A stretch of DNA of 64,000 bases from Patescibacteria group bacterium (GTDB lineage: Bacteria; Patescibacteriota; UBA1384; CAJBMM01): NCBI GenBank assembly GCA_041660565.1, contig JBAZWC010000001.1, positions 70,197 through 134,196 on the forward strand, given 5' to 3'. The notes beneath the pieces are model-generated. The model was not told where the DNA came from and made no database searches. It saw only the letters and a list, made by a program, of their open reading frames with translations. The position numbers and the translations under genes are program-made. Below, piece by piece: positions 4,846-40,965 of the stretch. Every line of letters begins with the position of its first letter. The first letter of the stretch is position 1.

Positions 4846-5014
4846 TTGTTATCATATAGATCATGAATCTTCCCTTTGACCTGCGGCCAGAGTTACTGGT
4901 TTCTGACAAAATCATTAAGTTTAGGATGACATGAACGGTAGTTTTTGGATTCACGATTATTGTTATTGAATTTGGATGATTTTCTGCTATCGTGTGGCGT
5001 GAGGGGGTGGTACC

Positions 5015-5761
5015 ATGAACATCGAGTTTTCAGGCTACGGGTTCACTGTCCTATGCACCTACTTACCCGTTGACATTTTCGAGCGGGCAATGAGCTGGCT
5101 AGCAAAAGGAGGACAAGGTCGGCTGACGTTTGAGCCGTGGGATGATGGGATTGTCGACAATCCCTGGGCATCAACCGGCATCGGTGGTAGGACGATTCGT
5201 CGACTTCGGGATCTCGAATCGAATGGCCTAGTTTGCCTTGGGTGGCGTCGTTACGAGCTGGTCAAGTGTGTCGATTCGATGGTGCTACTTAGTTACGCAC
5301 TGTGGCCAGTGCTGGTTGGACAGTACGAGATGGCTCGTCCAAACAACGCGGGTCTACAAGTGGATATCAACGAGATCACGCGGGGCTATCGGGTGGCAGC
5401 CAACTTTGACCCAGTGGTTTGGGACGTGATCGAACACGCTGGATTCAAGGGGCTACTGCCCGCCATCAACACGCACATTCGTCATTGGTTTGAGGAATTC
5501 GCGGATGGACGCGAAGATGGGCAGTACACCACCGTGTTCAATGGGAAGGATGGGCCTACGTTGATGTTCTATCCGCCGTCTACCAGCCGTGGTGTATGGA
5601 TTAGCGGGTCACGTGAACCCGGGATCGATGGGCACCAGCTGTATGACCACAACACCGATGGCGCTCTTGATGTGATGGGGCATTTGGTGGCACTCTGTAC
5701 CGTGCTAGATCACTGCCGAAAGGCAATCGACTCGGGAATTCTCAGCACTGACGGTGCGTAG
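5015..5761 (+). CDS. Hypothetical protein, high-GC
   Basis: 248-aa ORF, about 55-58% GC; no recognisable motif. Confidence 0.4.
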   Translation: MNIEFSGYGFTVLCTYLPVDIFERAMSWLAKGGQGRLTFEPWDDGIVDNPWASTGIGGRTIRRLRDLESNGLVCLGWRRYELVKCVDSMVLLSYALWPVLVGQYEMARPNNAGLQVDINEITRGYRVAANFDPVVWDVIEHAGFKGLLPAINTHIRHWFEEFADGREDGQYTTVFNGKDGPTLMFYPPSTSRGVWISGSREPGIDGHQLYDHNTDGALDVMGHLVALCTVLDHCRKAIDSGILSTDGA

Positions 5762-5844
5762 GCAATTGCCTACGCACCTCTTATTTATCTAGTCATATGA
5801 AACATGCTGTTTTTTTGATAATGTGTAAAGTACGAATCAAAATA

Positions 5845-5878
5845 CAGGGTATAGCTTAGTTGGTAAAGCGCTGGGGTT
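5845..5878 (+). other. Orphan tRNA 5' half (acceptor 5' strand CAGGGTA, complete D-arm GCTT/AAGC, anticodon-stem 5' strand CTGGG), then abruptly replaced by a GC-rich repeat
   Basis: CAGGGTA-TA-GCTT-AGTTGGTA-AAGC-G-CTGGG read directly. The 7-nt acceptor strand is exactly complementary to TACCCTG of the 3' half at 6455-6499. Confidence 0.4.
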
Positions 5879-5975
5879 GGCCTCCGCCCGTAGAGCTACG
5901 CCCGGAGGGCTCCGCCCGTAGGCTCCAGCCTGTAAGGCTTACGCCTGGAAGGGCTACGCCCGGAGGGGGTCAAAA
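5879..5975. repeat. GC-rich CTACGG/CCGTAGG/CTCCGCC module repeat
   Basis: ggcctccgcccgtagagctacgcccggaggg... ; the family recurs at 6330-6356, 6421-6460, 6499-6560, 19270-19400, 30960-31010, 35720-35800, 40790-40870, 49200-49240 and 60540-60640. Confidence 0.6.
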
Positions 5976-5977
5976 AA

Positions 5978-6238
5978 ATGTGCTATGTATATATATTGAT
6001 CAGCCAAGTTGATATGGAGCGGTATATTGGGTCAACTGTGAATCTTAGTGTTAGGCTGTCAGAGCATGATCTGGGGTTGGTAAATTCTACAAAAAATAGA
6101 CGCCCATTAAAGTTGTATGCTTATCAAATATGTGAGAATATCGGAGAAGCGAGAAAAATTGAGCATATGTACAAGGGTAGCCGGGGTGCTTATGACCGGG
6201 CGATTAAAAAAGGTCAATTGATTATCTTCGGGGAGTAG
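5978..6238 (+). CDS. Small stand-alone GIY-YIG nuclease domain protein
   Basis: YVYILISQ...RYIGSTVNLSVRLSEH matches the GIY-YIG core (GIY..YIG..R..H); the stop codon TAG (6236-6238) lies inside the 5' acceptor stem of tRNA-Pro. Confidence 0.7.
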   Translation: MCYVYILISQVDMERYIGSTVNLSVRLSEHDLGLVNSTKNRRPLKLYAYQICENIGEARKIEHMYKGSRGAYDRAIKKGQLIIFGE

Positions 6239-6305
6239 CATAGCGGCCTAATGCGCTGGGCTGGGGGTCCAGAGACCGGAGGTTCAAATCCTCTCTCCCC
6301 GACCA
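6229..6305 (+). tRNA. tRNA-Pro (anticodon GGG)
   Basis: Manual cloverleaf: acceptor CGGGGAG/CTCCCCG, D-stem GCAT/ATGC, anticodon stem CTGGG/TCCAG with loop CTGGGGG, T-arm GGAGG-TTCAAAT-CCTCT, discriminator A, encoded CCA. Confidence 0.8.
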
Positions 6306-6324
6306 ATTTGAAACTGGAATCGGG

Positions 6325-6397
6325 CTGGGCTCCGCCCGTAGGGCTACGCCCGGAGGGGGTCCAGAGATCGGCAGTTCGAGTCTGCCATCCCCGACCA
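6325..6397 (+). tRNA. tRNA-Pro-like 3' portion: anticodon stem with a 24-nt palindromic insert in the loop, variable loop, T-arm GGCAG/CTGCC, acceptor 3' strand ATCCCCG-A-CCA. No local 5' acceptor or D-arm
   Basis: GGGGTCCAGAGATC identical to tRNA-Pro 39-48; compensatory T-stem and acceptor changes relative to 6229-6305; the expected 5' partner CGGGGAT was not found nearby. Confidence 0.4.
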
Positions 6398-6454
6398 TGA
6401 TATAATGAAGTCTGCGACTAGGCTGGCCTCCGGCTCTACGAGCGGTAGGCTCGG

Positions 6455-6499
6455 AGAGGGGTCCAGAGACCGCCAGTTCAAGTCTGGCTACCCTGACCA
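6455..6499 (+). tRNA. tRNA-Pro-like 3' half (TCCAG, AGACC, T-arm GCCAG-TTCAAGT-CTGGC, acceptor TACCCTG-A-CCA)
   Basis: Compensatory T-stem. The acceptor 3' strand pairs perfectly with the orphan 5' half at 5845-5851; the upstream sequence is a repeat module, not a D-arm. Confidence 0.4.
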
Positions 6500-6588
6500 T
6501 CCCTCGCTCCCTCCTACGCTAAAGCTTCGGAAGGTCAAGAAAGCTACGGATGGCACGGCCAAAAATTAAAAAAATACAAAGGATATGA

Positions 6589-7116
6589 ATGAAAATCAAT
6601 AAACTTAAAAAAATTACCACCGGTGCAGCTCTGTTGACTGGACTTTTTGTGGCATCGGTTCAATCCACTTTTGCGATGTGCCCGGTGTGCACGGTAGCGG
6701 TGCTTGGTGGGGTTGAGTTGTCGCATTATCTCGGAATCGATGATGTGATAACCGGGCTATGGATTGGTGCATTAATGGTTTCGATTACAATGTGGACATC
6801 AAATTGGTTGCGCAACAAAAAATGGCGTTATATTCCCAAAGGCGCCGCATTCTGGTTTATTATTTGGGTTTTAATGACTTATGTCCCGCTCTATCAATAT
6901 CGATTTTTTGGGCATAACAACAGCCAACTCTGGGGGATTGATAAAATTATCATCGGATCGATGTTTGGGGTGGTGATTTTTGCACTGGCGGTGGTGGTTC
7001 ATAATTGGCTTAAAGCCAGAAACGGTGATAAAGTTTACGTGCAATTTCAACGTGTCATTATCCCGGTATCATTTTTGATAATCGGCAGCGTGGCGTTTTA
7101 TTTCATTACTAAATAA
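6589..7116 (+). CDS. Hypothetical integral membrane protein with signal peptide
   Basis: 175-aa ORF; N-terminal signal LLTGLFVASVQSTFA; at least 4 hydrophobic segments. Confidence 0.5.
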   Translation: MKINKLKKITTGAALLTGLFVASVQSTFAMCPVCTVAVLGGVELSHYLGIDDVITGLWIGALMVSITMWTSNWLRNKKWRYIPKGAAFWFIIWVLMTYVPLYQYRFFGHNNSQLWGIDKIIIGSMFGVVIFALAVVVHNWLKARNGDKVYVQFQRVIIPVSFLIIGSVAFYFITK

Positions 7117-7126
7117 AGGAGATATT

Positions 7127-7651
7127 GTGTCTGAAGATAAAGAACTCGACGGCTGGCTGGAAAAAGTATCTAAGAGTAAAAAAGGGGCACTAGATTTATC
7201 GTCTGATGAAGATCTATCAATTGCGATTATGAACTTAATCAGCATCGAAGAGCATTTTTTCTTTACTGCCGCCAAAACTGGCAAAGATCAATATTACGAT
7301 TTGTTGGGGCAAGTACGCGAAATGCGCAAAAGCTTGCTCAAAAAAATTGTCAAAGAGTACGAAGGTGAGGTGTGGTGCATTTCAAAACATTTGCTTTCGG
7401 CTAGTATGCGTTTGATTGAGGTTGGCACCAAGCAACAAGGATTGGGGCACGACAAAGACGCCAAAGAGATGTTTACTAAGGCGTACGAGTTGTACTCATT
7501 GTTCTGGGGGCTTAACTTGAACTTATTAAACGTCGGCGAGATTAAAAAGGTGGATGACGACCAAATGGATATTCACCCCGACAAAAAAACCTCACCGATG
7601 TCTAAGCTAGGCTTGTTAGTTAAAAAAGCGATTGATTGCTGTAGAGAGTAG
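7127..7651 (+). CDS. Hypothetical protein
   Basis: 174-aa ORF, 10 bp after the previous gene; no motif recognised. Confidence 0.45.
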   Translation: MSEDKELDGWLEKVSKSKKGALDLSSDEDLSIAIMNLISIEEHFFFTAAKTGKDQYYDLLGQVREMRKSLLKKIVKEYEGEVWCISKHLLSASMRLIEVGTKQQGLGHDKDAKEMFTKAYELYSLFWGLNLNLLNVGEIKKVDDDQMDIHPDKKTSPMSKLGLLVKKAIDCCRE

Positions 7652-8576: not shown

Positions 8577-9263
8577 TTAGAAAATCTGTGGGGCGCCGCG
8601 AATTGCCAAATTAGCAATTCTGAGTAACGGATCCATAATCCGGCTAAGCAAGTTAAATCCGCCAGAAGAGCCAAAAATAATATTAGAAAATACAAGCGTC
8701 AGTAGAAGCGCCGGACCAATGCGTTCCCAAACTTCACGCGCTTCGTGGTCTAAAAAGTAATTTACAATTTTTGATCCGTCGAGCGGGGGAATTGGGATGA
8801 TGTTGAATACCGCCAAAATGATATTAAGCGACACTATGGCGTCTAAAAATAATAAAAATATCGATTGATCGGTTGGCAAGCCGGCAATGGTCATAATTCT
8901 GGCGGGTAGAGCAAAAATTAACGCCACCAGTAAGTTTGAAATTGGGCCGGCAATTGCAATTTTAATCTCATCTAAATCAGATTTTAACGCATTCGGATTG
9001 TATGGTACCGGTTTGCCAAATCCAAATCCGGCAAACACAAATAAAAATAATCCCATTGGATCAATATGTGCCAAAGGATTCAGAGTGAGTCTACCTTGAT
9101 ATTTTGCCGTATCATCACCCAAACGATTTGCCATCCATGCGTGAGCAAATTCGTGCACAGACAAAGCTAGCATTACCCCAAGCACAATACCACAAATTGA
9201 AACGATCGCCACAATCGGCTGGTGGGCGTTTTGTTGCCATAGTTGTAAAATTAACACTTGCAA
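8577..9263 (-). CDS. Site-2 protease family (peptidase M50) membrane metalloprotease
   Basis: HEFAHA zinc motif (HExxH) in a TM helix, second motif LDGS, multiple TM segments. Confidence 0.75.
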   Translation of the reverse strand: MQVLILQLWQQNAHQPIVAIVSICGIVLGVMLALSVHEFAHAWMANRLGDDTAKYQGRLTLNPLAHIDPMGLFLFVFAGFGFGKPVPYNPNALKSDLDEIKIAIAGPISNLLVALIFALPARIMTIAGLPTDQSIFLLFLDAIVSLNIILAVFNIIPIPPLDGSKIVNYFLDHEAREVWERIGPALLLTLVFSNIIFGSSGGFNLLSRIMDPLLRIANLAIRGAPQIF

Positions 9264-13973: not shown

Positions 13974-14061
13974 GTCATTCCGGACTAGATCCGGAATCTA
14001 TGTATAAGAATCCTCGTCTTAGGCTAGGAAAGATTTATTCTTTACTAACCCAAGCCGATGG
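13974..14061. repeat. GTCATTCCGG hairpin unit plus the about 60-nt module GGCTAGGAAAGATTTATTCTTTACTAACCCAAGCCGAYGG
   Basis: The same 60-nt module recurs at 15170-15224. Confidence 0.6.
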
Positions 14062-14215
14062 AGTTTAACTTCGTCTGGCCTACCCCTCCCCGGGGTTAAT
14101 GCCGTCACGGCGTTGGGGAAACGGCATCTGGTGCGTATGGCGTAAGCCGCGCACCAAGTATTCGGTCAGCGTAACCGTAAGGCGAAGTTGACCAGATCCC
14201 TGGGAGGGGAAAAAG

Positions 14216-15037
14216 ATGGAATCCGCTAACGGGCAGATCGTCGACGCGTCTCATGTCGTCGACAATCCAGAGTCGGATCTCGTGACGATCTTGTCGCAGA
14301 ACGGTGGACGGACTATCGAAGTGATAGTGCCCGACGTCTGTGACCACGAGACGGTTTCTGAGCGCCTTTCGAGGCTGCTTGGAAAGCACGTTTCCGACTC
14401 CGACCTTTCCTCCGTTTGGGTTGGAGAGGAAGAGAAGCAATGCGCTTCTCTGATAGTCTCCTCCGACAAGGAGGGAGTACTGCAGGTCGCCCATAAGGAG
14501 GGCAACAAGATGAACCGCAAGCAAGCTTTGGCGCTGATTGGCGCCGCCGTGTCGTTCGGGTACACCGTGGTGGAAACGTTCGCGGACAACCGCGCGCTCC
14601 CCGCGTTCAGTCCTGCAGGCCGCCCGGGTTCCTGGTCGGATGTCGCGGAAGCGTATTACGACCGCTTCTTCGACCTTGATGACCTCTCCCAGTGGGAGTC
14701 GGTCGTCGGGCTGCTCCAGAAATGGTCCCACACGCGTGAGGCCTTCGGGATTCTGATCCCGACCCGGGACGATTTTGTCCTGGAGATCGAGCGCGCTGTT
14801 CGGCAGCGCCCGATCGACGGGGAGATGTACGTTCCCGAGGCTATGCCGCTTGCCGAGGCGGTCTGTAAGATGATCATGCTCGGCGCCACCACGGAGGAAA
14901 TCCTCGGCTGGGTCGAGGAGATCAACCTCCACACTGACGGCCAGGCACCGATCCTGTTCGACGCAATCGAGCAGGCGAACGAGCCTCGGTCGGAGCGGGG
15001 TGGCCGCGGCCGCGAGGCGGCCGAGGCCAGCAACTAG
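14216..15037 (+). CDS. Hypothetical protein, cassette 1 of high-GC island
   Basis: 273-aa ORF, about 60% GC, strong RBS GGGAGGGG 7 nt upstream; the opposite-strand ORF 14105..15130 is judged a GC shadow. Confidence 0.5.
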   Translation: MESANGQIVDASHVVDNPESDLVTILSQNGGRTIEVIVPDVCDHETVSERLSRLLGKHVSDSDLSSVWVGEEEKQCASLIVSSDKEGVLQVAHKEGNKMNRKQALALIGAAVSFGYTVVETFADNRALPAFSPAGRPGSWSDVAEAYYDRFFDLDDLSQWESVVGLLQKWSHTREAFGILIPTRDDFVLEIERAVRQRPIDGEMYVPEAMPLAEAVCKMIMLGATTEEILGWVEEINLHTDGQAPILFDAIEQANEPRSERGGRGREAAEASN

Positions 15038-15044
15038 TTCCACG

Positions 15045-15116
15045 GAGGGGTGGGTGCAACCGCACCCGCCTCTCCTCATTCCAAAGTTTCCAAAAGGTTG
15101 GGGACTTTGTAGATGA
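15045..15116 (+). promoter_or_regulatory. Conserved inter-cassette element, copy 1: GC hairpin (terminator-like) plus 45-nt box CTCCTCATTCCAAAGTTTCCAAAAGGTTGGGGACTTTGTAGATGA
   Basis: Hairpin GGGTGGGTGC-AAC-CGCACCCGCC; 28-nt palindrome CAAAGT..ACTTTG at 15082-15109; repeated 4 times in the island. Confidence 0.6.
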
Positions 15117-15125
15117 TTTCCTCTT

Positions 15126-15224
15126 GTCATTCCCGCGAAGGCGGGAATCCAGTCTATGAAAAACTTTCGATAATCCTTGGTTTAGGCTAGGAAAGATTTA
15201 TTCTTTACTAACCCAAGCCGACGG
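15126..15224. repeat. GTCATTCC(CG..CG)GGAATC hairpin plus 60-nt GGCTAGGAAAGATTTATTC module
   Basis: Low-GC host-type repeat inserted between cassettes 1 and 2. Confidence 0.6.
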
Positions 15225-15287
15225 ATGGCTTGATGTCCGAGTCTATAAGTCCTGACCCAAATGGGCAGGCAGGGCAAGGAGATTTCA

Positions 15288-15758
15288 ATGGAATTCGACG
15301 CTTCGTACAAACGGGCAAAGCGGCTGCTCGGTCAGAACTTCAGGGCGATGTGTCGTGAGGCTCACGCCCTGGCAGCGATGGGTTTGCCCATCGCGGTCTA
15401 CCAAGACCATGTCGTTCTGCTCCCAACGTATGGGACGACGAACGATTTCTTCTATCTCATGGCCGAGGGGATAGAGCATTGGTACGTCCGGTTCTGGTGC
15501 TGCAACGCCGAACCGGAGTTCGGCCAGACCGACTACCATGAGTCCCAGCAGATTGGCTCAGGCAGTCTGGAGTTGGTTGCCCGATGGTTCCGCGAGCAGT
15601 TAGAAGCTCGTGGCTGCCAGGCCGCCCAGCTGGAGAAGTTGGCCGCTGTTATGGCGGCTATCCTGCCGGAGGCGGCTTCCGTCGCGGCTCCGACAGACTT
15701 GGAGCCACCGAGGTTCACCCTCGGTGATCAGCTCCGAGAGATGGAGACCGGCAAGTAG
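15288..15758 (+). CDS. Hypothetical protein, cassette 2
   Basis: 156 aa from ATG at 15288 with RBS AAGGAG 7 nt upstream (the ORF track extends to 15261). Confidence 0.5.
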   Translation: MEFDASYKRAKRLLGQNFRAMCREAHALAAMGLPIAVYQDHVVLLPTYGTTNDFFYLMAEGIEHWYVRFWCCNAEPEFGQTDYHESQQIGSGSLELVARWFREQLEARGCQAAQLEKLAAVMAAILPEAASVAAPTDLEPPRFTLGDQLREMETGK

Positions 15759-15765
15759 CTCACAC

Positions 15766-15839
15766 GGAGGGGTGGGTGCGCAAGCGCCCACTCCTCTTCA
15801 TTCCAAAGTTTCCAATACGTTGGGGACTTTGTAGATGAA
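15766..15839 (+). promoter_or_regulatory. Conserved inter-cassette element, copy 2 (hairpin plus 45-nt box)
   Basis: ggaggggtgggtgcgcaagcgcccactcctc followed by ttcattccaaagtttccaatacgttggggactttgtagatga. Confidence 0.6.
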
Positions 15840-15843
15840 GAAA

Positions 15844-15955
15844 TGACTCCCCGTAGGGGATGGTATACACTTCGGGTGGGTCGCGACGACTCGCACCTAC
15901 CCACGACCCGCCTGACTAGGGGTGAAACTCTGGCAGGCAACAGGGGAGAACGGAA
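15844..15955 (+). ncRNA. Conserved about 110-nt leader type A, copy 1 (candidate cis-regulatory 5' UTR)
   Basis: More than 90% identical to 16791-16899 although the downstream ORFs are unrelated; contains CCCCGTAGGGG and GGGTGGGTCGCGACGACTCGCACCTACCCACGACCC stem potentials; ends in RBS GGGGAGA. Confidence 0.4.
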
Positions 15956-16618
15956 ATGGCTACAGGAAATATGTCATGGCTTGGCTTGGAAGTTGAGCCG
16001 ACCGTCGACGCAAAGTACCGCGTCGATTGGCAGCAATATGGTGGCCCGCGCGGCGGCCAGATGGTCGTCCGCTATGCCACTCGCGAGTGGCTGGAGATGG
16101 CGGTCAACTTCCGGGTTGCACCGTACACCGGAGAGCACTTCATCTCCGACTCCTGCTTCGAGAGCAGCCGGGAGGAGGAGTACATGGTGGCCGCCGCTCG
16201 CCGAACGGCAATGCGGCACGGCATGCTCCCTGACGTGCCAGGCCCGCAGGTCGGATATTGTGTCCGCCTGCAGCACTACCTGGGCCAGTGGTCGGCGGAG
16301 AACTTCCCGGCGACCACGAACGTGCCAGACGGGCATGTGGCGTCTCGGGGCACCGATCAGATGCCCATCTTCGGAATCGTCGATGGGTGGGCGGATGACA
16401 CAATATCCGGCCCTCCCACCCTTCGGGTGATCGTGAAGCGTGAAGCGCTCAGAATCATTGAGCGCGAGGTCAGGGCAGCCGCCAGTGCGGATGCCAGGGT
16501 TGCCCGTACCGGCTTCCTCACGGCGGAGGACGTGGACATGTCCACGGGCACGTATTCGCGTGTCTACGAGGCAATGATTCGGGTTTACCGTGGACATGTC
16601 GTAGCCTCAAACCAGTAG
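15956..16618 (+). CDS. Hypothetical protein, cassette 3
   Basis: 220 aa, about 62% GC; overlapping minus-strand ORFs judged GC shadows. Confidence 0.5.
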   Translation: MATGNMSWLGLEVEPTVDAKYRVDWQQYGGPRGGQMVVRYATREWLEMAVNFRVAPYTGEHFISDSCFESSREEEYMVAAARRTAMRHGMLPDVPGPQVGYCVRLQHYLGQWSAENFPATTNVPDGHVASRGTDQMPIFGIVDGWADDTISGPPTLRVIVKREALRIIEREVRAAASADARVARTGFLTAEDVDMSTGTYSRVYEAMIRVYRGHVVASNQ

Positions 16619-16716
16619 ACATACGCAATAGAAGTTTTTGGATCGTTCTTCGGCAAAAACGATCTGGCATCCCGATGCGCATAATCGGGAGGTTCGCGAT
16701 CCAAATCGCATTCGTT

Positions 16717-16788
16717 GAGAGGCGGGTGCAACCGCACCCGCCTCTCCTCATTCCAAAGTTTCCAAAAGGTTGGAGACTTTGTAGATGA
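16717..16788 (+). promoter_or_regulatory. Conserved inter-cassette element, copy 3 (perfect 13-bp hairpin GAGAGGCGGGTGC-AAC-GCACCCGCCTCTC plus 45-nt box)
   Basis: Read directly. Confidence 0.6.
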
Positions 16789-16790
16789 AT

Positions 16791-16899
16791 CGACTCCCCG
16801 TAGGGGATGGCAATACGCTTCGGGTGGGTCGCGACGACTCGCACCTACCCACGACCCGCCTGACTAGGGGTGAAACTCTGGCAGGCATAAGGGGAGACG
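16791..16899 (+). ncRNA. Conserved leader type A, copy 2
   Basis: See 15844-15955. Confidence 0.4.
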
Positions 16900-17475
16900 A
16901 TGAGTACGACAACAAGTGGAACCAGCCCTGGGCGACGCACCTTCTACTACGGGCGGTCTGGTGGCTTGCACGCCACCGGCGAGGCAGCAACGCGGCTGCT
17001 GGAGATCATCAGGCAGCCGCCGTACGATCTCCTCCCGTTCCTTGGAGGAGAGGATATTAGTCTTCCAGAAGGTACGGGTCTCGCAGATGTCGCGAAGTGC
17101 GAGGCGTTTTTCACGCCATGGGTCAAGGTCTGGGCGCCGCGTCGAATCGTTCGTTACCTGTTGTCGCTGGTGCCAGAGGCGACTTACCACTGGTGTCCGT
17201 GGGAGGGAAAGATTCCTGCGGGATGGCTGACCATCCCGAACTACGACAGCCAGGTTCCTCAGTCCTTCCTGGACTGGGTCGCGGAAACCGGAGGAGTTTT
17301 TGACGAGCCCTCCGGCGGAGCGGTCTGGCTCAAGTGGCCGAACATGCGGCAGGTACATGTCCAGTTCGAGAAGGGGGATTTCCCGGAGGATCTGATTATC
17401 TCCGGAAACGGCCGTAGGTGGTATCTGGAGCGGTATGCCAACGGCCTGGAGATCCTCAACATCCGCGAAGTCTAG
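16900..17475 (+). CDS. Hypothetical protein, cassette 4
   Basis: 191 aa; RBS AGGGGAGA. Confidence 0.5.
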   Translation: MSTTTSGTSPGRRTFYYGRSGGLHATGEAATRLLEIIRQPPYDLLPFLGGEDISLPEGTGLADVAKCEAFFTPWVKVWAPRRIVRYLLSLVPEATYHWCPWEGKIPAGWLTIPNYDSQVPQSFLDWVAETGGVFDEPSGGAVWLKWPNMRQVHVQFEKGDFPEDLIISGNGRRWYLERYANGLEILNIREV

Positions 17476-17481
17476 TCTACT

Positions 17482-17556
17482 GGAGGGTAGGGCGCTGTTC
17501 GCGCCCGCCCTCCTCATTCCAAAGTTTCCAAAAGGTTTGGGGACTTTGTAGATGAA
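17482..17556 (+). promoter_or_regulatory. Conserved inter-cassette element, copy 4
   Basis: GGAGGGTAGGGCGC-TGTTC-GCGCCCGCCCTCC hairpin plus 45-nt box. Confidence 0.6.
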
Positions 17557-17761
17557 TTTAGACAGGTTGGTCGGTTCGTATGTGCATCATATTTTATGAA
17601 TCATATACGAGCTGGTTACCCTGCCAACTTGGCCCTCCTCGGGCTTATGCCGTTCAGGCGTAAGGGAAAAAGATGCGTATGGCGCATAGCCGCGCATCTG
17701 CTTTGTAGGCCATCTAAGCCGTAAGGCAAAGTTGACCGAACCCCTGGGAGGGGGAATAGAA

Positions 17762-18892
17762 ATGGCAACAATCGCCTTTCGCAAGAAGGGTGAGACGGCT
17801 GAGCTGCCGCTCACGGGAATCGTGGATCCGTCCACGGTGACAGTATGTGACACCGCGCCGAGTGGTGCGCCTGTTGCAAAACGGGACCGACTTCAGTATA
17901 AGTTGGTTCCCGTGCCGGAGGGGACGTTGCGCCTTCGGATCCCAGTCGTACAGATCCGGTCGTCGCAGCTGTACGACGGCTGGATGACAGCCCGGGAATT
18001 TTGGGATAACCACCCAGACTTCCGGGGCGCTATCCTTAATGTGGATAGCGGGTTAAGGGCGTTCAGTGTGATCAACACGCTGTTTGCCCGGTTCGAAGAC
18101 GTTTGGCCCGGGCACCCCGTCCCGGCCGATATTCTTGCCGCGAGGCAGGAGATCGCCGAGGAAAAGCGGCTGGCGGCCGCTGAGGAAGTGGCCCGCCAGG
18201 AAAGTCAAAGGTCGTGGGACGCTATGTTGCAGAAAACCCACGACCTGATTGCCCTGGTGATGGGCGATATACCAGAAATCGTTCGTCATCAGAACGAATA
18301 CTGGAGTTTCTCGGTGAGTTCAATGGAGAGGTCGGTTTCTCTCCATACCCTTATACAGGGTGTGCGCTTCTACTTTGTCGCTAAGCATAATGACGTGCAG
18401 GTGGCGGCAAGGAGGGTGCTTGCCCTCCGCGATGAGTGGCGCACCAGTCCTCCCGGGGGCTTCGTCTTTTCTCCTGATACCCAGACGTACTGGGATTTGA
18501 AGGAGGAGAGCTGGAGTGGGGGGTGGCGGCTGGACGAGTGGTGCCGTGTGGCCAAGTGGCTGCGCGAGCAACACGAGGCCGCCGAGAAGGCGGCAACCGC
18601 GGAAGAAGCGGAGGAGCGCCAGTGGCTCTTCCAGTTACGCGGGATCATGATCCCTCCCCTGTACGGGGAGCAGCTGGTGGCTGTCCCAATGGTGGATAGC
18701 CGCGCTTGTTCGCCCAACGAGGCTAACTGGTGGGGGCTTTACACCCCCGACGGCAAGCCATACCTGATCCGTCGCGGGATCCACGTCCGGTACAGCTCTC
18801 TTGAGGGGCTGATCCGGAACCACTATCGGGACGAGCGGGGGATCATGGAGGAAGCGCTTTTATTGCTTTCTTCATTGATCCACTCGCTGTAG
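17762..18892 (+). CDS. Hypothetical protein, cassette 5
   Basis: 376 aa from ATG 17762 (RBS GGGAGGGGG). Its about 130-nt leader (type B) is about 80% similar to the leader of cassette 1 (14090-14215). Confidence 0.5.
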   Translation: MATIAFRKKGETAELPLTGIVDPSTVTVCDTAPSGAPVAKRDRLQYKLVPVPEGTLRLRIPVVQIRSSQLYDGWMTAREFWDNHPDFRGAILNVDSGLRAFSVINTLFARFEDVWPGHPVPADILAARQEIAEEKRLAAAEEVARQESQRSWDAMLQKTHDLIALVMGDIPEIVRHQNEYWSFSVSSMERSVSLHTLIQGVRFYFVAKHNDVQVAARRVLALRDEWRTSPPGGFVFSPDTQTYWDLKEESWSGGWRLDEWCRVAKWLREQHEAAEKAATAEEAEERQWLFQLRGIMIPPLYGEQLVAVPMVDSRACSPNEANWWGLYTPDGKPYLIRRGIHVRYSSLEGLIRNHYRDERGIMEEALLLLSSLIHSL

Positions 18893-19185
18893 CCCAAAGC
18901 GTTTTGGTAGTTTTTCGCATAATGAAACTAGCCACTGGGGTGGGGAAGAAAATAAATCTTCCTCACCCAACTGTCCCCCGCAAGAAACGGGGCTGATGAG
19001 TCGTTGAAAATTACGACGAAACAGATAAGGAAATTAAATCAGCTTGAGCGTAAAAAACCAAGCATGCTCACCGACGGATTATAGCCGTTTTGGCACCGCA
19101 AGATTATATAATCGTTTTAGCAATAAGACGGTTGTTACTACCGAATCTTGCGGGACCAAAGCGGCTTTTTGAGTACCAAAATTCT

Positions 19186-20911: not shown

Positions 20912-21118
20912 GTTGTATGATGGGAGGGGGAACATCACGATTTGTTATCGCAAAAGAATTGTAGATCACGCTTTAGCGTGTTAGAGAACCAATTTGAAAG
21001 CAAGCTAAAGCTTGGTCTACGGTCGTTCACGGAAAACAATAGGGGATGTGCTGGGCACGGGCGGGTCTCCAAAACCTGCCTCGAAGCGTCCGATTCGCTT
21101 ATCCCCTGCCAAATAAAT

Positions 21119-32751: not shown

Positions 32752-35670
32752 ATGAGTGCGTGGCCAATCAAAAATGAAACTCAAAGCCGGGTTTTAAAGT
32801 TATTATCAACCTTGGTTGATTTAGGTTTTGTTAAATCTGAAGTAATTGACAACTTAAGAGCTGAGCTAAAACCGCTTCCATCCGAGGTTGAGCTGGTTGA
32901 GTATTTAGTTAAGCATTTGATTGCCGATTACGACCAGATTAATCGCGCCTATGCCACCTTATTAAAATTACCGTATTTGCAACTACCACAAGAGGTAAAT
33001 AAAGCGTCGCTCATAAAATTACCAAAAGCTGTTTGTGAAGAAAAACAGATGGTGGTTTATGGGACAAATGACAAAGAATGGGATATTGCGGTGGCAAAGC
33101 CGGCTTTATTGCAGGAGAGCCAATCCGGTGTTCTGACTAAATTATCTAAAGCAGAAAAGATCAAATATAAAATCGTAATTACTTCGCCTGATTCAATAAA
33201 AAGATGGCTTAATCAGTATCCGGATCAGAGGACGGAGGACGGAGGACAGAAGACAGAATCATCTCTGTCATTTCGACCCGGGGAGCTGGTTCGAGCGACC
33301 ACGTTGGAGAAATCTCAAGAAAGAATCCCTTCCACTTTAGCCAATTCAGAAAAAGCGGCGTTGATTGGTCGAGCGATTGACCCGAAAGTACTACATAAGA
33401 TTCCGGTGGCCATCGCAAAAGACGTTGGCATTATTGCATATCAGTTTAGAGATAATGTTTTTGAAGTTGCAACAGTAGATCCAATGAGTCAAAAAGTACT
33501 AAACGCTGTTCATTACATTCAAGATCATAACAACGTTAAAATCAATTTACACCATACATCGCGTGACGATATTGATTACGCTATTTCGCAGTATGGGCTT
33601 CATGACCGCATCTTTAACCAAAAAAATCTGTCCGGGCAGAAAATTGATCACGAGCTTTTGTTAAAAATACCTTACAATGTGGCAAAAAAGTATCGTTTTG
33701 TGGTGTTTGGTAAGATCATTACAAGCCAAGGATTAACTGACAATTCAATTTATCAAGTTGCGTCAGACAATCTAAATAATGCCGAGGCAAATATTATTTG
33801 GGGTTATATTGAAAAGAATAACGGGGTTACCCTGTATTTGTACCCAACCGATATCGGTAGCATTGACTACGCGTTGTCTTTATATCCGGAAACAACCGAT
33901 CACAAAGAACAGCTCGCGTTACCGGGCGTTAAAAAAGCTGAGTGGTTATTGCCGCCACCCGTTCCTCATAATCCAGTCCCTGCAACAGCAGCGGTAGTTA
34001 AACCGCAAGCCAAGCCTAACCCTCAAAACGAACAACCTTTGCCGCCCACAGATATACCGGAAGAAAAGCCATCTTTCTGGCCCAAATGGTTAGTTTCATT
34101 GTTTGGTGGTAAAAAAGACAACGAGATTATAATTTCGGAAGATCTTATCTCGCCACCAGGTACTGTACCGAACGCGGCTACATCGGCAATGTTAGGAAAT
34201 CCAAATCCAACTCAACCGCCAATACCGGTGCCGACAAAACCGGCAGAGGTAAAACCACCCGAACAAAAACCACCGAGTCCTGCTCCTGTTCCTCCAAAAC
34301 CCCCTGAAGAGGTGGCAATAGAGCAAAAGACATTTATTCTTAAGACTAAAGAACCCTATGGCGCCAAAGAGAAAGAAGCTGCCCCAAAGCCGGTGGGGGA
34401 AGAAGACGAAGATAACTTAGGGAGCTTGCTTGACCACGATGTAACTACTCTGGAAGAACTGCAGAAGATAATTCAAGAAGGATTTGTACCACGAGTGGTG
34501 GCAGCGCTAGTCAGTTATGCCATCACTTTACACGCCTCAGACGTTCATATCGAAGCAGAAGAAAAAGATGTCCGCGTGCGTTATCGTGTGGATGGTATGT
34601 TGCAAGACGTAATGCGATTACCGGTAGAACAACACGCTGCCATTATTAGTCGTATTAAAATATTGTCCAAGCTGAAAATTGACGAAACTCGTATTCCTCA
34701 AGATGGGCGATTTGACGTAGCGTTTAAAGATCGTGCGGTCGATTTGCGTGTATCATCTATGCCAACGGTGCATGGTGAAAAGATAGTTATGCGTATTTTA
34801 GACAAGACGCATGGTATCATGTCACTGGAAGATTTGGGTGTACTGGGTAGAGCATTTGACATTGTTATCGAAGCCATTAAAAAACCATATGGCATTGTGC
34901 TTTCAACTGGTCCAACCGGATCTGGAAAATCCACCACTTTGTATGCCATTTTAAACCGAATCTCGGTGCCTACGGTCAACGTAATCACACTTGAAGATCC
35001 GGTTGAGTATGAAATAGCCGGGGTTAACCAAGCGCAGATCAAACCAAAAATTGGTTTCACTTTTGCAGAAGGGTTAAGATCGGTTTTGCGCCAAGACCCA
35101 AATATCGTGATGGTGGGAGAGATTCGAGACGCTGAAACCGCCAGCATGGCTACCCACGCAGCCTTAACCGGTCACTTAGTATTATCTACCCTACACACCA
35201 ATGATGCTCCTGGTGCCCTACCACGTCTAATAAATATGGGTATTGAGCCATTCCTAATTACCTCGTCAATTAACTGCGTTGAAGCTCAGCGCCTGGTTCG
35301 TCGAATCTGTCCGAACTGTAAAGAAGAAGTTGAGCTGCCGGAAACGGTTATTAAAGAGATCACCGATGAGCTCAATAAGATACCGGAAAATAATCCCAAA
35401 GATCGTGCCCGGGTGACAAATCCGATGAAGTTCTATCACGGTAAAGGATGCGACAAGTGTCAAAACGGATATCGTGGGCGAATTGGTATTTACGAAGTGA
35501 TGGCCATGAGCGAAAAGGTGGAGCAACTGGCAATCGAAAAAGCATCTGCCGCCTCTATTCAAGCTCAGGCAATTAAAGAAGGCATGATTACCATGAAGCA
35601 AGACGGATTGCTAAAAGCACTAATTGGTATGACCACGGTTGATGAAGTGTTACGCGAAACCTCGGAGTAG
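32752..35670 (+). CDS. pilB: Type IV pilus assembly ATPase PilB/GspE family with extended N-terminal region (about 600 aa: repeated T2SSE_N-like segments and a Pro-rich linker)
   Basis: Walker A GPTGSGKSTT, Walker B/Asp box, His box, tetracysteine CPNC...CDKC; contains an in-frame repeat insertion at 33229-33336. Confidence 0.85.
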   Translation: MSAWPIKNETQSRVLKLLSTLVDLGFVKSEVIDNLRAELKPLPSEVELVEYLVKHLIADYDQINRAYATLLKLPYLQLPQEVNKASLIKLPKAVCEEKQMVVYGTNDKEWDIAVAKPALLQESQSGVLTKLSKAEKIKYKIVITSPDSIKRWLNQYPDQRTEDGGQKTESSLSFRPGELVRATTLEKSQERIPSTLANSEKAALIGRAIDPKVLHKIPVAIAKDVGIIAYQFRDNVFEVATVDPMSQKVLNAVHYIQDHNNVKINLHHTSRDDIDYAISQYGLHDRIFNQKNLSGQKIDHELLLKIPYNVAKKYRFVVFGKIITSQGLTDNSIYQVASDNLNNAEANIIWGYIEKNNGVTLYLYPTDIGSIDYALSLYPETTDHKEQLALPGVKKAEWLLPPPVPHNPVPATAAVVKPQAKPNPQNEQPLPPTDIPEEKPSFWPKWLVSLFGGKKDNEIIISEDLISPPGTVPNAATSAMLGNPNPTQPPIPVPTKPAEVKPPEQKPPSPAPVPPKPPEEVAIEQKTFILKTKEPYGAKEKEAAPKPVGEEDEDNLGSLLDHDVTTLEELQKIIQEGFVPRVVAALVSYAITLHASDVHIEAEEKDVRVRYRVDGMLQDVMRLPVEQHAAIISRIKILSKLKIDETRIPQDGRFDVAFKDRAVDLRVSSMPTVHGEKIVMRILDKTHGIMSLEDLGVLGRAFDIVIEAIKKPYGIVLSTGPTGSGKSTTLYAILNRISVPTVNVITLEDPVEYEIAGVNQAQIKPKIGFTFAEGLRSVLRQDPNIVMVGEIRDAETASMATHAALTGHLVLSTLHTNDAPGALPRLINMGIEPFLITSSINCVEAQRLVRRICPNCKEEVELPETVIKEITDELNKIPENNPKDRARVTNPMKFYHGKGCDKCQNGYRGRIGIYEVMAMSEKVEQLAIEKASAASIQAQAIKEGMITMKQDGLLKALIGMTTVDEVLRETSE
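33229..33336. repeat. In-frame repeat insertion within pilB: (GGACGGAGGAC)x3 microsatellite plus TGTCATTTCGACCCGGGGAGCTGGTTCGAGCGACCACGTTGGAGAAATCTCAAGAAAGAATCCCTTCC
   Basis: About 95% identical to the intergenic copy at 37072-37141; translated as ...QRTEDGGQKTESSLSFRPGELVRATTLEKSQERIPS... without interrupting the reading frame. Confidence 0.7.
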
Positions 35671-35688
35671 GCGGAGAGCGCAATTATT

Positions 35689-35872
35689 TGTCATTTCGAC
35701 CCGAGGAGATCGTCAGATCGACTACGTTGGCCTCCGGCTCGTAGACCCTCCGGGCGTAAGTCCTACGGGCTGGAGCCTACGGCTCGGAGAGAGAAATCTA
35801 AGCAAGAATCCCTTCCAGTTTTTTTTAAGATTTCTCCAACCGTTCGTGGAAGCTCACGGGGTCGAAATGACA
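35689..35872. repeat. Large composite palindromic element (TGTCATTTCGAC TIRs enclosing a CTACGG module and AGAAATCT..AGATTTCTCC)
   Basis: Read directly, between pilB and pilT. Confidence 0.7.
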
Positions 35873-35946
35873 GGTATTGGCATTTGCACAACCATCATTC
35901 TTAGCGTTATACTTAAGATGAAGTATCTTTTGAGGAGGGATAATTT

Positions 35947-37014
35947 ATGTCAGTTAATATGATTCCAGAAATGGAGCGTTTGCTTGATCAAACGATCGCA
36001 GCTAAGGCTTCGGACTTGCATATTGTAGTGGGTATCAACCCGACAATTAGAATTGATGGCGAGCTAACCCCACTAATGGACGAACCGTTAGTTGATGCCA
36101 AAATGGCCCAAACGCTTGTAACTGGAATACTTGACGCGGAGATGAATGACTCGTTGAATCAGCGCAAAGAAATTGACTTTTCTTTCGGTTATAAAGAGTA
36201 TCGTTTTCGTGCCAATGCCTATTTTCAAAGTAGTACTTACGCGTTGTCTCTTCGATTAATTACGCTGGAAATTCGGAATTTTACTCAATTAGGTTTGCCA
36301 CCGGTATTGGAACGATTTGCAGCCAGTGGGCAAGGATTAGTCATTATCACCGGTCCAACCGGGCATGGCAAATCCACCACCTTGGCCGCTATGATCAATC
36401 AAATTAACGAAGATCGCCGCGACCGTATCATCACCATAGAAGATCCTATTGAATACGTGTTTAAGCATAAAAAATCAATTGTTACCCAACGAGAGCTGGG
36501 GCAAGATACAAATTCATTTTCGCGAGCACTGCGAGCGGCGCTACGTGAAGATCCTGATGTGGTGCTAGTGGGTGAAATGCGAGATCTAGAGACAGTTGAA
36601 GCAGCCTTAACCATCGCTGAAACCGGTCACTTGGTATTTACCACCCTACACACCAACTCGGCTGCTCAAACCGCCGATCGTATTATCGACATTTTCCCGC
36701 CACACCAACAAGCGCAGGTTCGAGCCCAGTTAGCCAGCGTGCTACTCGGCGTGGTATCGCAGCGTTTAATCGCTAAAATTGGTGGTGGGCGTACGGTGGC
36801 GGTTGAGTTAATGATCGCTAACTCGGCGGTGCGAAACACTATTCGTGAAGGTAAAACTCACCAATTGCCAAACATTATTCAAACCAGTGCTGCCGAGGGT
36901 ATGATAAGCTTAGACAAAGTCTTGGCCGAATTGGTCAGTAAGGGTGATATTACAATTGATAATGCCTTATTATGGTCCATGGATCCGAAAGCATTAAAAA
37001 TGATGGTTTATTGA
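35947..37014 (+). CDS. pilT: Twitching-motility (retraction) ATPase PilT
   Basis: 355 aa; Walker A GPTGHGKSTT, PilT-type motifs; lacks the zinc tetracysteine of PilB. Confidence 0.85.
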   Translation: MSVNMIPEMERLLDQTIAAKASDLHIVVGINPTIRIDGELTPLMDEPLVDAKMAQTLVTGILDAEMNDSLNQRKEIDFSFGYKEYRFRANAYFQSSTYALSLRLITLEIRNFTQLGLPPVLERFAASGQGLVIITGPTGHGKSTTLAAMINQINEDRRDRIITIEDPIEYVFKHKKSIVTQRELGQDTNSFSRALRAALREDPDVVLVGEMRDLETVEAALTIAETGHLVFTTLHTNSAAQTADRIIDIFPPHQQAQVRAQLASVLLGVVSQRLIAKIGGGRTVAVELMIANSAVRNTIREGKTHQLPNIIQTSAAEGMISLDKVLAELVSKGDITIDNALLWSMDPKALKMMVY

Positions 37015-40662: not shown

Positions 40663-40704
40663 ATACTTTAGGGGTGTTGGGGTGATTTGGGGAGTTGTGA
40701 AAAA

Positions 40705-40913
40705 ACCCTTCTCCTCTGGAGGAGAAGGTGGAACGCTAAGCGTCCCTTGACCCCGCTTAGCGGGGTGCCCGTAGGGCGGATGAGGAGCTCCTCACCTCTC
40801 CGAGCCGTAGGCTCCAGCCCGTAGGACTTACGCCCGGAGGGTCTACGAGCCGGAGGCCGGTCTTCGACCACCCTCTCCTCAAGGAGGAGAGGGAAACCGA
40901 GGAGTCGAAATGA
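40705..40913. repeat. About 210-bp mosaic palindromic element (CTTCTCCTCTGGAGGAGAAG; GGAACGCTAAGCGTCCC; CCCCGCTTAGCGGGG; GAGGAGCTCCTC; CTACGG module; CTCTCCTCAAGGAGGAGAG; ..GTCGAAATGACA)
   Basis: An inverted copy lies at 44826-44975 and a related copy at 60455-60650; overlapping ORF 40668..41153(-) judged spurious. Confidence 0.7.
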
Positions 40914-40965
40914 CATGTGAATCAAAATATATGTTACAATAAACGTAACACCGGAGGGGATTAAT

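Follow-up and report, generated by a model that had tools for sequence, protein, structure and literature searches.

The closest known system to the locus reported here is SegB, a free-standing GIY-YIG homing endonuclease encoded within a tRNA gene cluster of phages T4 and T6; SegB is about 220 amino acids (aa) long, carries DNA-binding modules and is borne by phages. According to the accessible part of a published account, SegB cuts tRNA-containing DNA, and microhomology shared by a tRNA gene's 5' end and segB's 3' end leads to tandem tRNA-segB repeats (PMC13096335). Our subject is a tRNA-Pro(GGG) locus with a GIY-YIG nuclease gene in a 64,000-nt stretch of contig JBAZWC010000001.1 from a Patescibacteria group bacterium (this whole stretch is called the window). 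The window resembles the SegB system in that a GIY-YIG gene lies among and beside tRNA genes, the 3' end of the open reading frame (ORF) overlaps the 5' end of a tRNA gene, and partial tRNA repeats flank the ORF. GC-rich palindromes within the orphan tRNA copies are a feature of the window, and the accessible part of the SegB account makes no mention of them (PMC13096335). By contrast with SegB, the window protein has 86 aa, consists of the catalytic domain only and is structurally nearer, as modelled, to Slx1/UPF0213 than to I-TevI, its gene is fused to a tRNA gene, and its family is chromosomal, in the candidate phyla radiation (CPR) and many other phyla, with no homolog found in IMG/VR or INPHARED.

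Two further groups of proteins bear on the comparison. Free-standing endonuclease ORFs of organelles, such as the atp6-linked ORF of Allomyces mitochondria, reportedly bring a partial copy of their target gene with them, and the displaced piece of the old gene becomes a pseudogene. The window would share this logic, in which the element supplies the working copy, the insertion is harmless and the old fragment stays beside it; however, the organelle elements sit in mitochondrial protein genes, whereas the window concerns bacterial chromosomal tRNA genes and a whole tRNA is carried. The Slx1-like/UPF0213 proteins (YhbQ-type; 1ZG2, 1YWL) have the same size and predicted fold as the window protein and gave its best structural matches. 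We know of no established function for this bacterial family, and the yhbQ gene of E. coli is presumably not located next to a tRNA gene. In its accessible part, a 2006 survey noted the absence of motif E in an Slx-1 cluster, in which it placed 1YWL-type proteins, and, because of a fusion to a TrmH-like domain, guessed at a role in the metabolism of RNA or tRNA; that part is silent on tRNA-gene linkage, orphan tRNA fragments and palindromes (PMC1564403).

We consider it likely that the tRNA fragments of the window are non-functional relics, made in connection with a selfish cassette of GIY-YIG nuclease and tRNA-Pro(GGG) that invades tRNA genes. The locus is apparently one instance of a widespread cassette, seemingly not described before, in which a GIY-YIG gene is linked to a tRNA gene and which belongs with the free-standing homing endonucleases; the literature searched, in which journal coverage was incomplete, yielded no account of GIY-YIG genes being linked to tRNA genes of bacterial chromosomes. 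The features of the locus and of its repeat family are as follows, with the partial tRNA copies designated A, B and C.

5815-5843, + strand: promoter-like site TTGATA-17-CAAAAT, directly 5' of orphan 5' half A
5845-5875, + strand: orphan 5' half A, CAGGGTA / TA / GCTT-AGTTGGTA-AAGC / G / CTGGG
5877-5964, + strand: two GC-rich palindromic repeat units (88 nt) in the anticodon loop of A, the short one at 5877-5908 and the long one at 5909-5964
5965-5971, + strand: GGGGGTC, the remaining anticodon loop of A and the first 2 nt of the stem 3' strand
5978-6238, + strand: gene for the 86-aa GIY-YIG nuclease, its stop codon TAG being U8-A9-G10 of the tRNA-Pro downstream
6229-6305, + strand: intact tRNA-Pro(GGG), called by ARAGORN; Rfam 60.1 bits against a gathering score of 29
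about 6316-6397, + strand: fragment B, a tRNA-Pro copy truncated at its 5' side; it extends from the D-stem 3' strand as far as ACCA, and its acceptor strand is ATCCCCG
6421-6499, + strand: fragment C, the putative 3' counterpart of A, displaced from the same gene; its tRNA 3' piece is at 6462-6499
35727-35794, + strand: dispersed copy of the long palindromic repeat, intergenic, with no tRNA or nuclease gene nearby
40793-40860, - strand: second dispersed copy, inverted with respect to that at 35727-35794 and differing from it at 4 positions near the alignment ends

The anatomy given in the initial annotation of this DNA was recovered in all its parts, namely an intact tRNA-Pro(GGG), a clean 5' half running into a GC-rich repeat, a distal 3' half with an acceptor strand exactly complementary to that of the 5' half (7/7; TACCCTG is the exact reverse complement of CAGGGTA), a second 3' portion with a palindrome in its anticodon loop and no 5' half, and an 86-aa GIY-YIG ORF whose stop overlaps the acceptor region of the tRNA. 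From their sequence, tRNA-Pro(GGG) appears to be the only intact and working tRNA of the locus and the other pieces appear to be relics. A comprises the 5' strand of the acceptor stem, a perfect D-arm and the 5' strand of the anticodon stem, and runs directly into the repeats; its similarity to tRNA ends at 5971, followed by AAAAAA and the ATG of the nuclease ORF, which overlaps the tRNA-Pro(GGG) gene by 10 nt. B begins 19 nt after the intact tRNA and reads, over 6325-6397, CTGGG-CT-(23-nt imperfect hairpin, 6332-6354)-GGGGG-TCCAG-AGATC-GGCAG-TTCGAGT-CTGCC-ATCCCCG-ACCA. Its anticodon arm is that of the intact tRNA but for the 23-nt hairpin between T33 and G34, its T-arm (GGCAG/CTGCC) is perfect, and its similarity to tRNA probably reaches back to about 6316, into the 3' strand of the D-stem. 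After a further 23 nt, C consists of GGCTGG, a 32-nt palindromic element (6427-6458), GGG-TCCAG, a full T-arm and TACCCTG-ACCA, its tRNA 3' piece being TCCAG / AGACC / GCCAG-TTCAAGT-CTGGC / TACCCTG / ACCA with a perfect T-arm. B and C are 69-71% identical to the 3' half of the intact tRNA. Neither a CGGGGAT-type 5' half as partner for B, nor other matching 5' halves, nor further nuclease copies were found in the window; the acceptor type of B (CGGGGAT/ATCCCCG) occurs intact beside a GIY-YIG gene in one of the homologous loci surveyed below (L101) and in degenerate form downstream of one in another (L001).

A and C are best read as the two ends of one former tRNA-Pro gene, most like the GGG type. 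A gene rebuilt from A, the loop CTGGGGG and C is a canonical tRNA-Pro, and the G residues in a row behind the inserts of A and of C agree with a GGG-type loop (CTGGGGG), with G38 in the rebuilt gene. The best match to A and C was the tRNA-Pro(GGG) of L152 (31/36 and 36/41 positions), a locus without a nuclease gene; the rebuilt gene is identical to it at 68/76 positions, compared with 60/77 for the intact tRNA 250 nt away. A metagenome scan for intact tRNAs sharing the acceptor stem and first D-arm bases of A (CAGGGTATAGC ... CTACCCTGACCA) yielded 104 genes, and the 99 called by ARAGORN were all tRNA-Pro (UGG 55, CGG 39, GGG 5). The compensatory T-arm changes that the initial annotation had taken to imply selection for folding are real; what does not follow is selection on the fragments, since the differences are explained by descent from different once-functional tRNA-Pro genes. 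The predicted folding energies of the fragments were indistinguishable from those of shuffled sequences (A, z = +0.6; B, z = -1.8; C, z = -0.5), and they are uninformative because the DNA is so GC-rich. In modelling, B can fold into a D-armless tRNA-like shape. An Rfam scan of 5000-7500 with E<=10 returned just the intact tRNA and chance-level matches, the halves not being scored as tRNA.

The nuclease ORF matched the Pfam GIY-YIG family PF01541 over residues 1-71 of 86 (E 3.6e-13; 50 bits against a cut-off of 22.6), and residues Y5, Y16, I17, G18, R26, H30 and E62 were invariant in an alignment of 11 homologs, in which no invariant Asn followed E62 (motif E). The AlphaFold2 model was confident (mean predicted local distance difference test score 91.6), with strands at residues 2-9, 15-20 and 44-52 and helices at 23-31, 55-67 and 71-78. 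Foldseek ranked the UPF0213 protein BH0048 first (1ZG2, E 4.6e-3), followed by yeast Slx1 (4XLG, 1.1e-2), EF2693 (1YWL), and then I-TevI (0.6) and UvrC (2.5); all best matches were GIY-YIG domains, none of them reaching E<=1e-3, and a sequence search of PDB with the nuclease gave no match. The protein is thus predicted to be a minimal Slx1/UPF0213-like GIY-YIG domain, and with its Pfam match, catalytic-motif residues and confident predicted fold it looks like an active nuclease. The family is large, with at least 4458 clusters (50% identity, E<=1e-10), and nearly all of the best 150 are 80-130 aa long. Carriage of the nuclease by phages was considered and rejected, as no relatives were found in IMG/VR (pattern scan) or INPHARED (tblastn).

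To examine the genomic context of this family, we surveyed 80 homologous loci in GTDB species-representative genomes (here and elsewhere in the text, loci outside the window are numbered with the prefix L), using a 5-sequence subset of the 11-sequence alignment as query and covering CPR, Ignavibacteria, Bacteroidota, Bdellovibrionales, gammaproteobacterial metagenome-assembled genomes and others. An intact tRNA lay within 400 nt of the GIY-YIG match in 47/80 loci, on the same strand in 47/47, and the tRNAs belonged to many isoacceptors in many phyla. Every close homolog adjoined a tRNA gene on the same strand, the closest ones being fused or adjacent to tRNA-Pro(GGG) (L007/8, L100, L101 and L001-6) and more distant ones adjoining tRNA-Tyr, Ala(GGC), Arg(TCG) or Ser(CGA). 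The ORF ended between -15 and +30 nt from the first base of the tRNA in about 25 loci, and in about ten it started 15-27 nt past the last base of the tRNA. In six loci, the overlap of ORF and tRNA was exactly 10 nt (the window, L007 and L101 with tRNA-Pro; L068, L069 and L088 with tRNA-Trp), and in all four overlap loci that were read (window, L101, L069 and L088) the stop codon TAG coincides with U8-A9-G10 of the tRNA, a near-universal feature. On cleavage by RNase P at the 5' end of the tRNA, the nuclease mRNA would lose its last codons and the stop; tRNA maturation and translation of the complete nuclease from one transcript would be mutually exclusive. In Ignavibacteria/Melioribacteraceae, a conserved order of tRNA-Gly(GCC), tRNA-Cys(GCA) and GIY-YIG ORF was observed (L021, L027, L029, L031, L032, L041, L062, L084, L089, L090 and L097), with the ORF starting about 19-170 nt past tRNA-Cys (19-22 nt in five loci) and with extra tRNA-Cys copies in several loci, in which positions 39-56 are swapped for a short GC hairpin.

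Partial tRNA copies likewise accompany the nuclease gene in other genomes. We defined an orphan duplicate as a stretch of at least 15 nt that is at least 95% identical to the linked tRNA and lies outside any called tRNA, called tRNAs being left out since neighbouring tRNA genes share T-arm and D-arm sequence. Such duplicates were present in 30/52 nuclease-linked loci, compared with 1/270 control tRNAs; orphans were often 100% duplicates of the adjacent intact tRNA, and every orphan copy that was read contained a GC-rich palindrome a few nucleotides before its end. The layout of the window, with 4-13 nt of tRNA after the hairpin, an A/T-rich stretch and then ATG, recurred in L007, L101, L016, L088 and L092. 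L007, the nearest relative (62% identity), matches the left side of the window exactly, with a foreign tRNA 5' half, a repeat of the same family in its anticodon loop, GGGGGC, TATAAT and an ORF starting with ATG that overlaps tRNA-Pro(GGG). In L101, the cleanest case, tRNA-Pro positions 1-18, a 55-nt GC-rich hairpin, positions 19-31, AATAT and the ORF with its ATG are followed by the complete tRNA. In L088, the perfect palindrome CCCCGCCATTCGCGAATGGCGGGG separates tRNA-Trp positions 1-36 from positions 57-66, after which come the ORF and the complete tRNA. L021 has tRNA-Cys positions 1-38, CCCGCCTTTGGCGGG and positions 57-75 upstream of the intact tRNA and ORF, and, downstream of the ORF, tRNA-Cys positions 20-38, the same hairpin (CCCGCCTTTGGCGGG) and positions 57-75. 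The same theme was found with Ser, Pro(UGG), Trp and Cys tRNAs in L016, L046, L040, L069 and L078. Berkelbacteria locus L001 shows the mirror arrangement, in which intact tRNA-Pro(GGG), 19 nt and the ORF are followed by a B-like 3' fragment (ATCCCCG-ACCA) with repeats in its loop and the 3' strand of the anticodon stem lost, while L092 and L096 contain tandem arrays of 5'-truncated, hairpin-bearing tRNA units like B and C. Break points at the loop-coding positions ~36-38 and 55-57 recur in many loci.

Comparison of the window with L007 further separates the history of the linked tRNAs from that of the orphans. The nuclease-linked tRNAs are identical at 70/78 positions (90%), whereas the upstream orphan 5' halves, each with a perfect D-stem, are identical at 17/31 (55%). 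Because the linked tRNAs are alike, the orphan halves divergent and the D-stems perfect, the orphans would derive from different functional resident genes; the nuclease and its tRNA therefore seem to have moved or been inherited as a unit into different resident genes, which does not fit neutral decay of one ancestral orphan. On a shorter scale, L013 and L014/L015 encode an identical nuclease and differ by short GC-rich indels (for example cgcgctccccgcctcc and cctgccc) within orphan tRNA-like pieces, some 100-230 nt before the tRNA-Arg(TCG) gene that is itself followed by the GIY-YIG ORF. Gain or loss of palindromic pieces seems to occur within short times.

The anticodon loops of all three relics of the window hold members of one GC-rich palindromic repeat family. 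The repeat units match one another more often than expected (8 matches, with 0.94 expected and no shuffle reaching 8). In an alignment, the second unit in A is the long form and aligns lengthwise with the dispersed copies (35.7 and 40.8 kb), a 28-nt short form makes up the first unit in A as well as the insert in B, and the element in C is a third, related variant. The two dispersed copies are nearly identical over about 63 nt and lie in opposite orientation in the intergenic DNA of a pilus gene cluster. The core motif CCGCCCnnAGGnCTnnGCCCGG was found solely beside GIY-YIG genes (window, L001, L011 and L040) and not at all in 531 kb of control DNA. Members of the family go along with the nuclease in some of the related CPR lineages; elsewhere, this position is taken by other GC-rich palindromes. 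The repeats beside A and C, which had been described as mutually complementary, do pair at 12/13 positions (5884-5896 with 6433-6445); this pairing is generic and not specific to a leader and trailer, because the family is self-complementary and also occurs at 35.7 and 40.8 kb. The TTGG that follows A recurs at the end of the 35.7-kb copy (TTGGCCTCCGG, at 35726) and is probably a repeat terminus. A UGG anticodon for A, suggested by the same TTGG, is less likely, given this recurrence and the best match of the rebuilt gene to the GGG type.

The dispersed copies sit within larger intergenic palindromes (35688-35875 and 40668-40915) with outer arms TGTCATTTCGAC ... GTCGAAATGACA. These are inverted with respect to each other and about 5 kb apart, the left one lying between a large ORF (ending at 35670) and a gene for a T2SSE/PilT-like ATPase (starting at 35947), and their motif TTCGAAATGACA also occurs upstream of tRNA-Pro in Berkelbacteria L001 (~2666-2677). 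The larger palindromes may be a second, bigger element of CPR genomes resembling a miniature inverted-repeat transposable element (MITE).

We propose that the cassette corresponds to 5978-6305, a minimal nuclease gene fused head-to-tail to its own tRNA-Pro(GGG), with the stop codon inside the tRNA. The nuclease would break DNA within tRNA genes or close to them; a cassette-bearing copy would serve as the repair template, by which the ORF and its tRNA would be installed, and pieces of the old gene would stay as flanking partial duplicates. In the window, the cassette would have displaced a resident tRNA-Pro(GGG), leaving its 5' part (A) upstream of the nuclease gene and its 3' part (C) downstream; the old 5' part would act as, and persist as, the upstream homology arm. 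B would be what is left of one more tRNA-Pro copy, which likely came with an earlier cassette, and the tRNA-Pro(GGG) site was probably invaded more than once. The present arrangement could have come about by several routes, among them invasion in series, the loss of an older ORF or recombination of one palindrome with another. The tRNA of the cassette would keep the host viable, and the overlap of stop codon and tRNA would make ORF and tRNA hard to separate. The promoter-like site at 5815-5843 is the sole sigma-70-like match in 5650-6700, a number that shuffled sequences also give, so that its position alone is suggestive; it is probably the promoter of the resident tRNA gene, now positioned to drive the whole array, which it would probably transcribe. 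By analogy, the nuclease may recognize structure rather than sequence, which is plausible because its Slx1 relatives cut branched or hairpin DNA and because the break points fall at loop-coding positions. The initial annotation had offered, among other options, pseudogenes formed by repeat insertions into anticodon loops and a GIY-YIG homing arrangement. The former is essentially right for all three fragments, although it misses the nuclease-linked cause and the repeats are not tRNA-specific; the latter comes close to the comparative data, with a free-standing cassette fused to a tRNA gene in place of an intron.

Several observations weigh against this proposal. About 40% of the homologous loci have no tRNA within 400 nt, and orphan 3' pieces with a complete T-arm, as in B and C, were found in 5/87 loci only. 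The break point of the orphans varies by lineage (tRNA positions ~31, 40 and 66), and a single fixed insertion site is therefore not indicated. The protein has no C-terminal DNA-binding modules of the kind present in classical homing endonucleases, and its match to TIGR01453 (group I intron endonuclease) covers residues 3-30 only, at 23.3 bits against a cut-off of 56.05; lacking such an extension and falling below this cut-off, it is not a classical homing endonuclease. GC-rich perfect hairpins numbered 1.89/kb within 200 nt of nuclease ORFs and 0.19/kb in the remaining loci, an approximately ten-fold ratio that is inflated because intergenic DNA is compared with mostly coding DNA. No occupied/empty polymorphism was obtained among close relatives, and the nearest homologs of the flanking gene are at most 51% identical, not syntenic and not located beside tRNAs. 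The intact tRNA still holds whatever sequence the nuclease recognizes, leaving self-immunity unexplained. Finally, nuclease activity, its target, the order of events and the role of the palindromes are all deduced from sequence comparison.

A farther-reaching form of the proposal is tentative, and we hold it to be doubtful rather than probable. Here, small bacterial Slx1/UPF0213-like GIY-YIG proteins would be the engines of an unrecognized class of chromosomal mobile elements, structure-specific nucleases that attack the loop-coding positions of tRNA genes (anticodon loop ~35-38, T-loop ~55-57), perhaps via cloverleaf or cruciform DNA, install themselves fused to a replacement tRNA and spread GC-rich palindromes. 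The tRNA pieces would then be working parts of the element, serving as homology arms, in immunity to re-cutting or in control of ORF expression, and not debris.

It is unlikely that the locus is instead a module beneficial to its host, in which the nuclease, the hairpin-bearing tRNA-like pieces and the tRNA control tRNA gene copy number or dosage, or in which the pieces act as decoys. The size and conservation of the nuclease family and the conservation of the palindrome sequence over lineages with different tRNA targets are what such a module would lead one to expect, as is the modelled D-armless fold of B, and there is a precedent in SegB, which drives a useful amplification of tRNA genes from within a tRNA cluster (PMC13096335). 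However, orphan structure and break points vary freely among lineages, the folding energies of A, B and C are like those of shuffled sequences, and some orphans are clearly degenerate, for example that of L001, which is without the 3' strand of the anticodon stem.

Similarly improbable, in our estimate, is an array of decaying tandem tRNA-Pro paralogues hit independently by a genome-wide MITE-like palindrome, with the GIY-YIG gene an unrelated neighbour. The four units of the locus do differ in sequence as paralogues would, the repeat family occurs away from tRNAs within the window, and palindrome insertions would be tolerated in dead copies only. Yet such decay leaves unaccounted for the co-oriented linkage to tRNAs across phyla (47/80), the fusion of ORF and tRNA at U8-A9-G10 and the excess of orphan duplicates (30/52 versus 1/270), and in every locus read the tRNA similarity stops 4-13 nt past the hairpin, right before the ORF.

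The initial annotation had also raised the possibility of a split or intron-containing tRNA gene, in which A and C would be joined as RNA, either by removal of about 580 nt or in trans via the complementary repeats, to give a tRNA-Pro. The acceptor strands of A and C pair fully, D-arm and T-arm are both intact, A has a promoter-like site in front of it and the adjoining repeats pair as described above. Joined in silico at 5880|6460, A and C give a canonical cloverleaf, valid in form, that ARAGORN calls as tRNA-Pro(UGG). The organism must have a UGG-type tRNA at some place, because across ten long ORFs CCA and CCG together account for 69% of the Pro codons, and none was found in the window. Group I introns at position 35/36 occur in tRNA-Asn/Asp of Patescibacteria, where they carry HNH endonucleases (bioRxiv 10.1101/2025.07.03.662931); the window resembles these in phylum and in the interruption of the anticodon loop but has a GIY-YIG gene instead of HNH and no ribozyme. 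No group I intron match was found in 5000-7500 up to E = 10 in Rfam, and the interval is filled by the ORF, the tRNA and fragments, leaving no room for a ribozyme; ARAGORN, when introns of up to 700 nt were allowed, called no new tRNA. Split tRNAs of Nanoarchaeum equitans are similar to the window in their separate 5' and 3' pieces with matching acceptor strands. The window differs from them in that leader and trailer show no specific pairing, half-pairs are not conserved in relatives and an intact copy with the same anticodon lies alongside; a bulge-helix-bulge motif (3-nt bulge, 4-bp helix, 3-nt bulge) was absent from the junction, the predicted folds being plain hairpins. The window is bacterial, as judged from its class II tRNA-Tyr of 86 nt and from the homologs of its proteins in Patescibacteria/CPR genomes, and an archaeal splicing endonuclease is not expected in such a host. 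The repeat complementarity is generic, TTGG recurs at a repeat terminus, and the rebuilt gene is GGG-like, also in its G38, with an intact GGG copy 250 nt off. Relatives hold either a single orphan half (5' only in L007, L101, L088 and L092) or degenerate ones (3' only in L001), the orphans often being exact copies of the adjacent tRNA. Since neither a group I ribozyme nor an intron call nor any conserved half-pairs were found, a functional split or intron-bearing tRNA is not supported, and we regard it as highly improbable.

The anticodon arm, near which B and C start, is the classical crossover region of integrases. That the fragments are integration or excision scars at a tRNA gene, as attL/attR remnants of islands or prophages, is hardly credible, even though such events are a common origin of partial prokaryotic tRNA genes (bioRxiv 10.1101/2022.07.05.498093), because no integrase domain was found in the neighbouring ORFs scanned against Pfam and there is no island, B and C are too divergent from the intact 3' half for att repeats, which are near-identical, an orphan 5' half is present as well, and the nuclease has no relatives in IMG/VR or INPHARED.

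Returning to the selfish cassette, the comparative data tie a very large family of ~90-aa GIY-YIG proteins to tRNA genes across phyla, with a stereotyped architecture in which the ORF stop lies inside the tRNA, partial tRNA duplicates flank the ORF and dead copies carry GC-rich palindromes. Provided that these units are cassettes that invade tRNA genes, they would represent a chromosomal equivalent of SegB in phages, would offer a route for horizontal tRNA gene replacement in reduced genomes and would give bacterial Slx1-like proteins a testable function. Such loci also yield orphan tRNA halves, which may wrongly be taken for split or intron-bearing genes; tRNA annotation of CPR genomes should allow for this.

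Some further features of the window were recorded. A terminator-like hairpin (5753-5778) closes the gene upstream of the locus. A Peptidase_M50 gene lies about 1-2 kb from the tRNA-Pro/GIY-YIG locus both in the window (8577-9263, - strand) and in Berkelbacteria L001 (1353-2000), a faint hint of a conserved neighbourhood although the flanks otherwise differ. An exact-sequence look-up of the protein encoded downstream returned a single contig (L206; Logan SRR18595301, 1177 nt), in which the downstream gene is identical and which ends 62 nt upstream of that gene, at the border of the tRNA/repeat array, where short-read assemblies probably tend to break. A 5-kb block at 14000-19000 has 57-61% G+C, compared with ~42-45% for the genome, and contains long overlapping ORFs on both strands, three of which were tested and gave no Pfam match; foreign origin is one possibility for it, an unusual repetitive gene another. 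At 45-47 kb there is a second GC-rich block, smaller than the first, whose 598-aa product matches Big_7 weakly. A tRNA-Trp(CCA) of 71 nt at 21041-21111, with its anticodon at position 29, was called by ARAGORN only, scoring below the Rfam gathering threshold, and its D-arm seems to be reduced or atypical.

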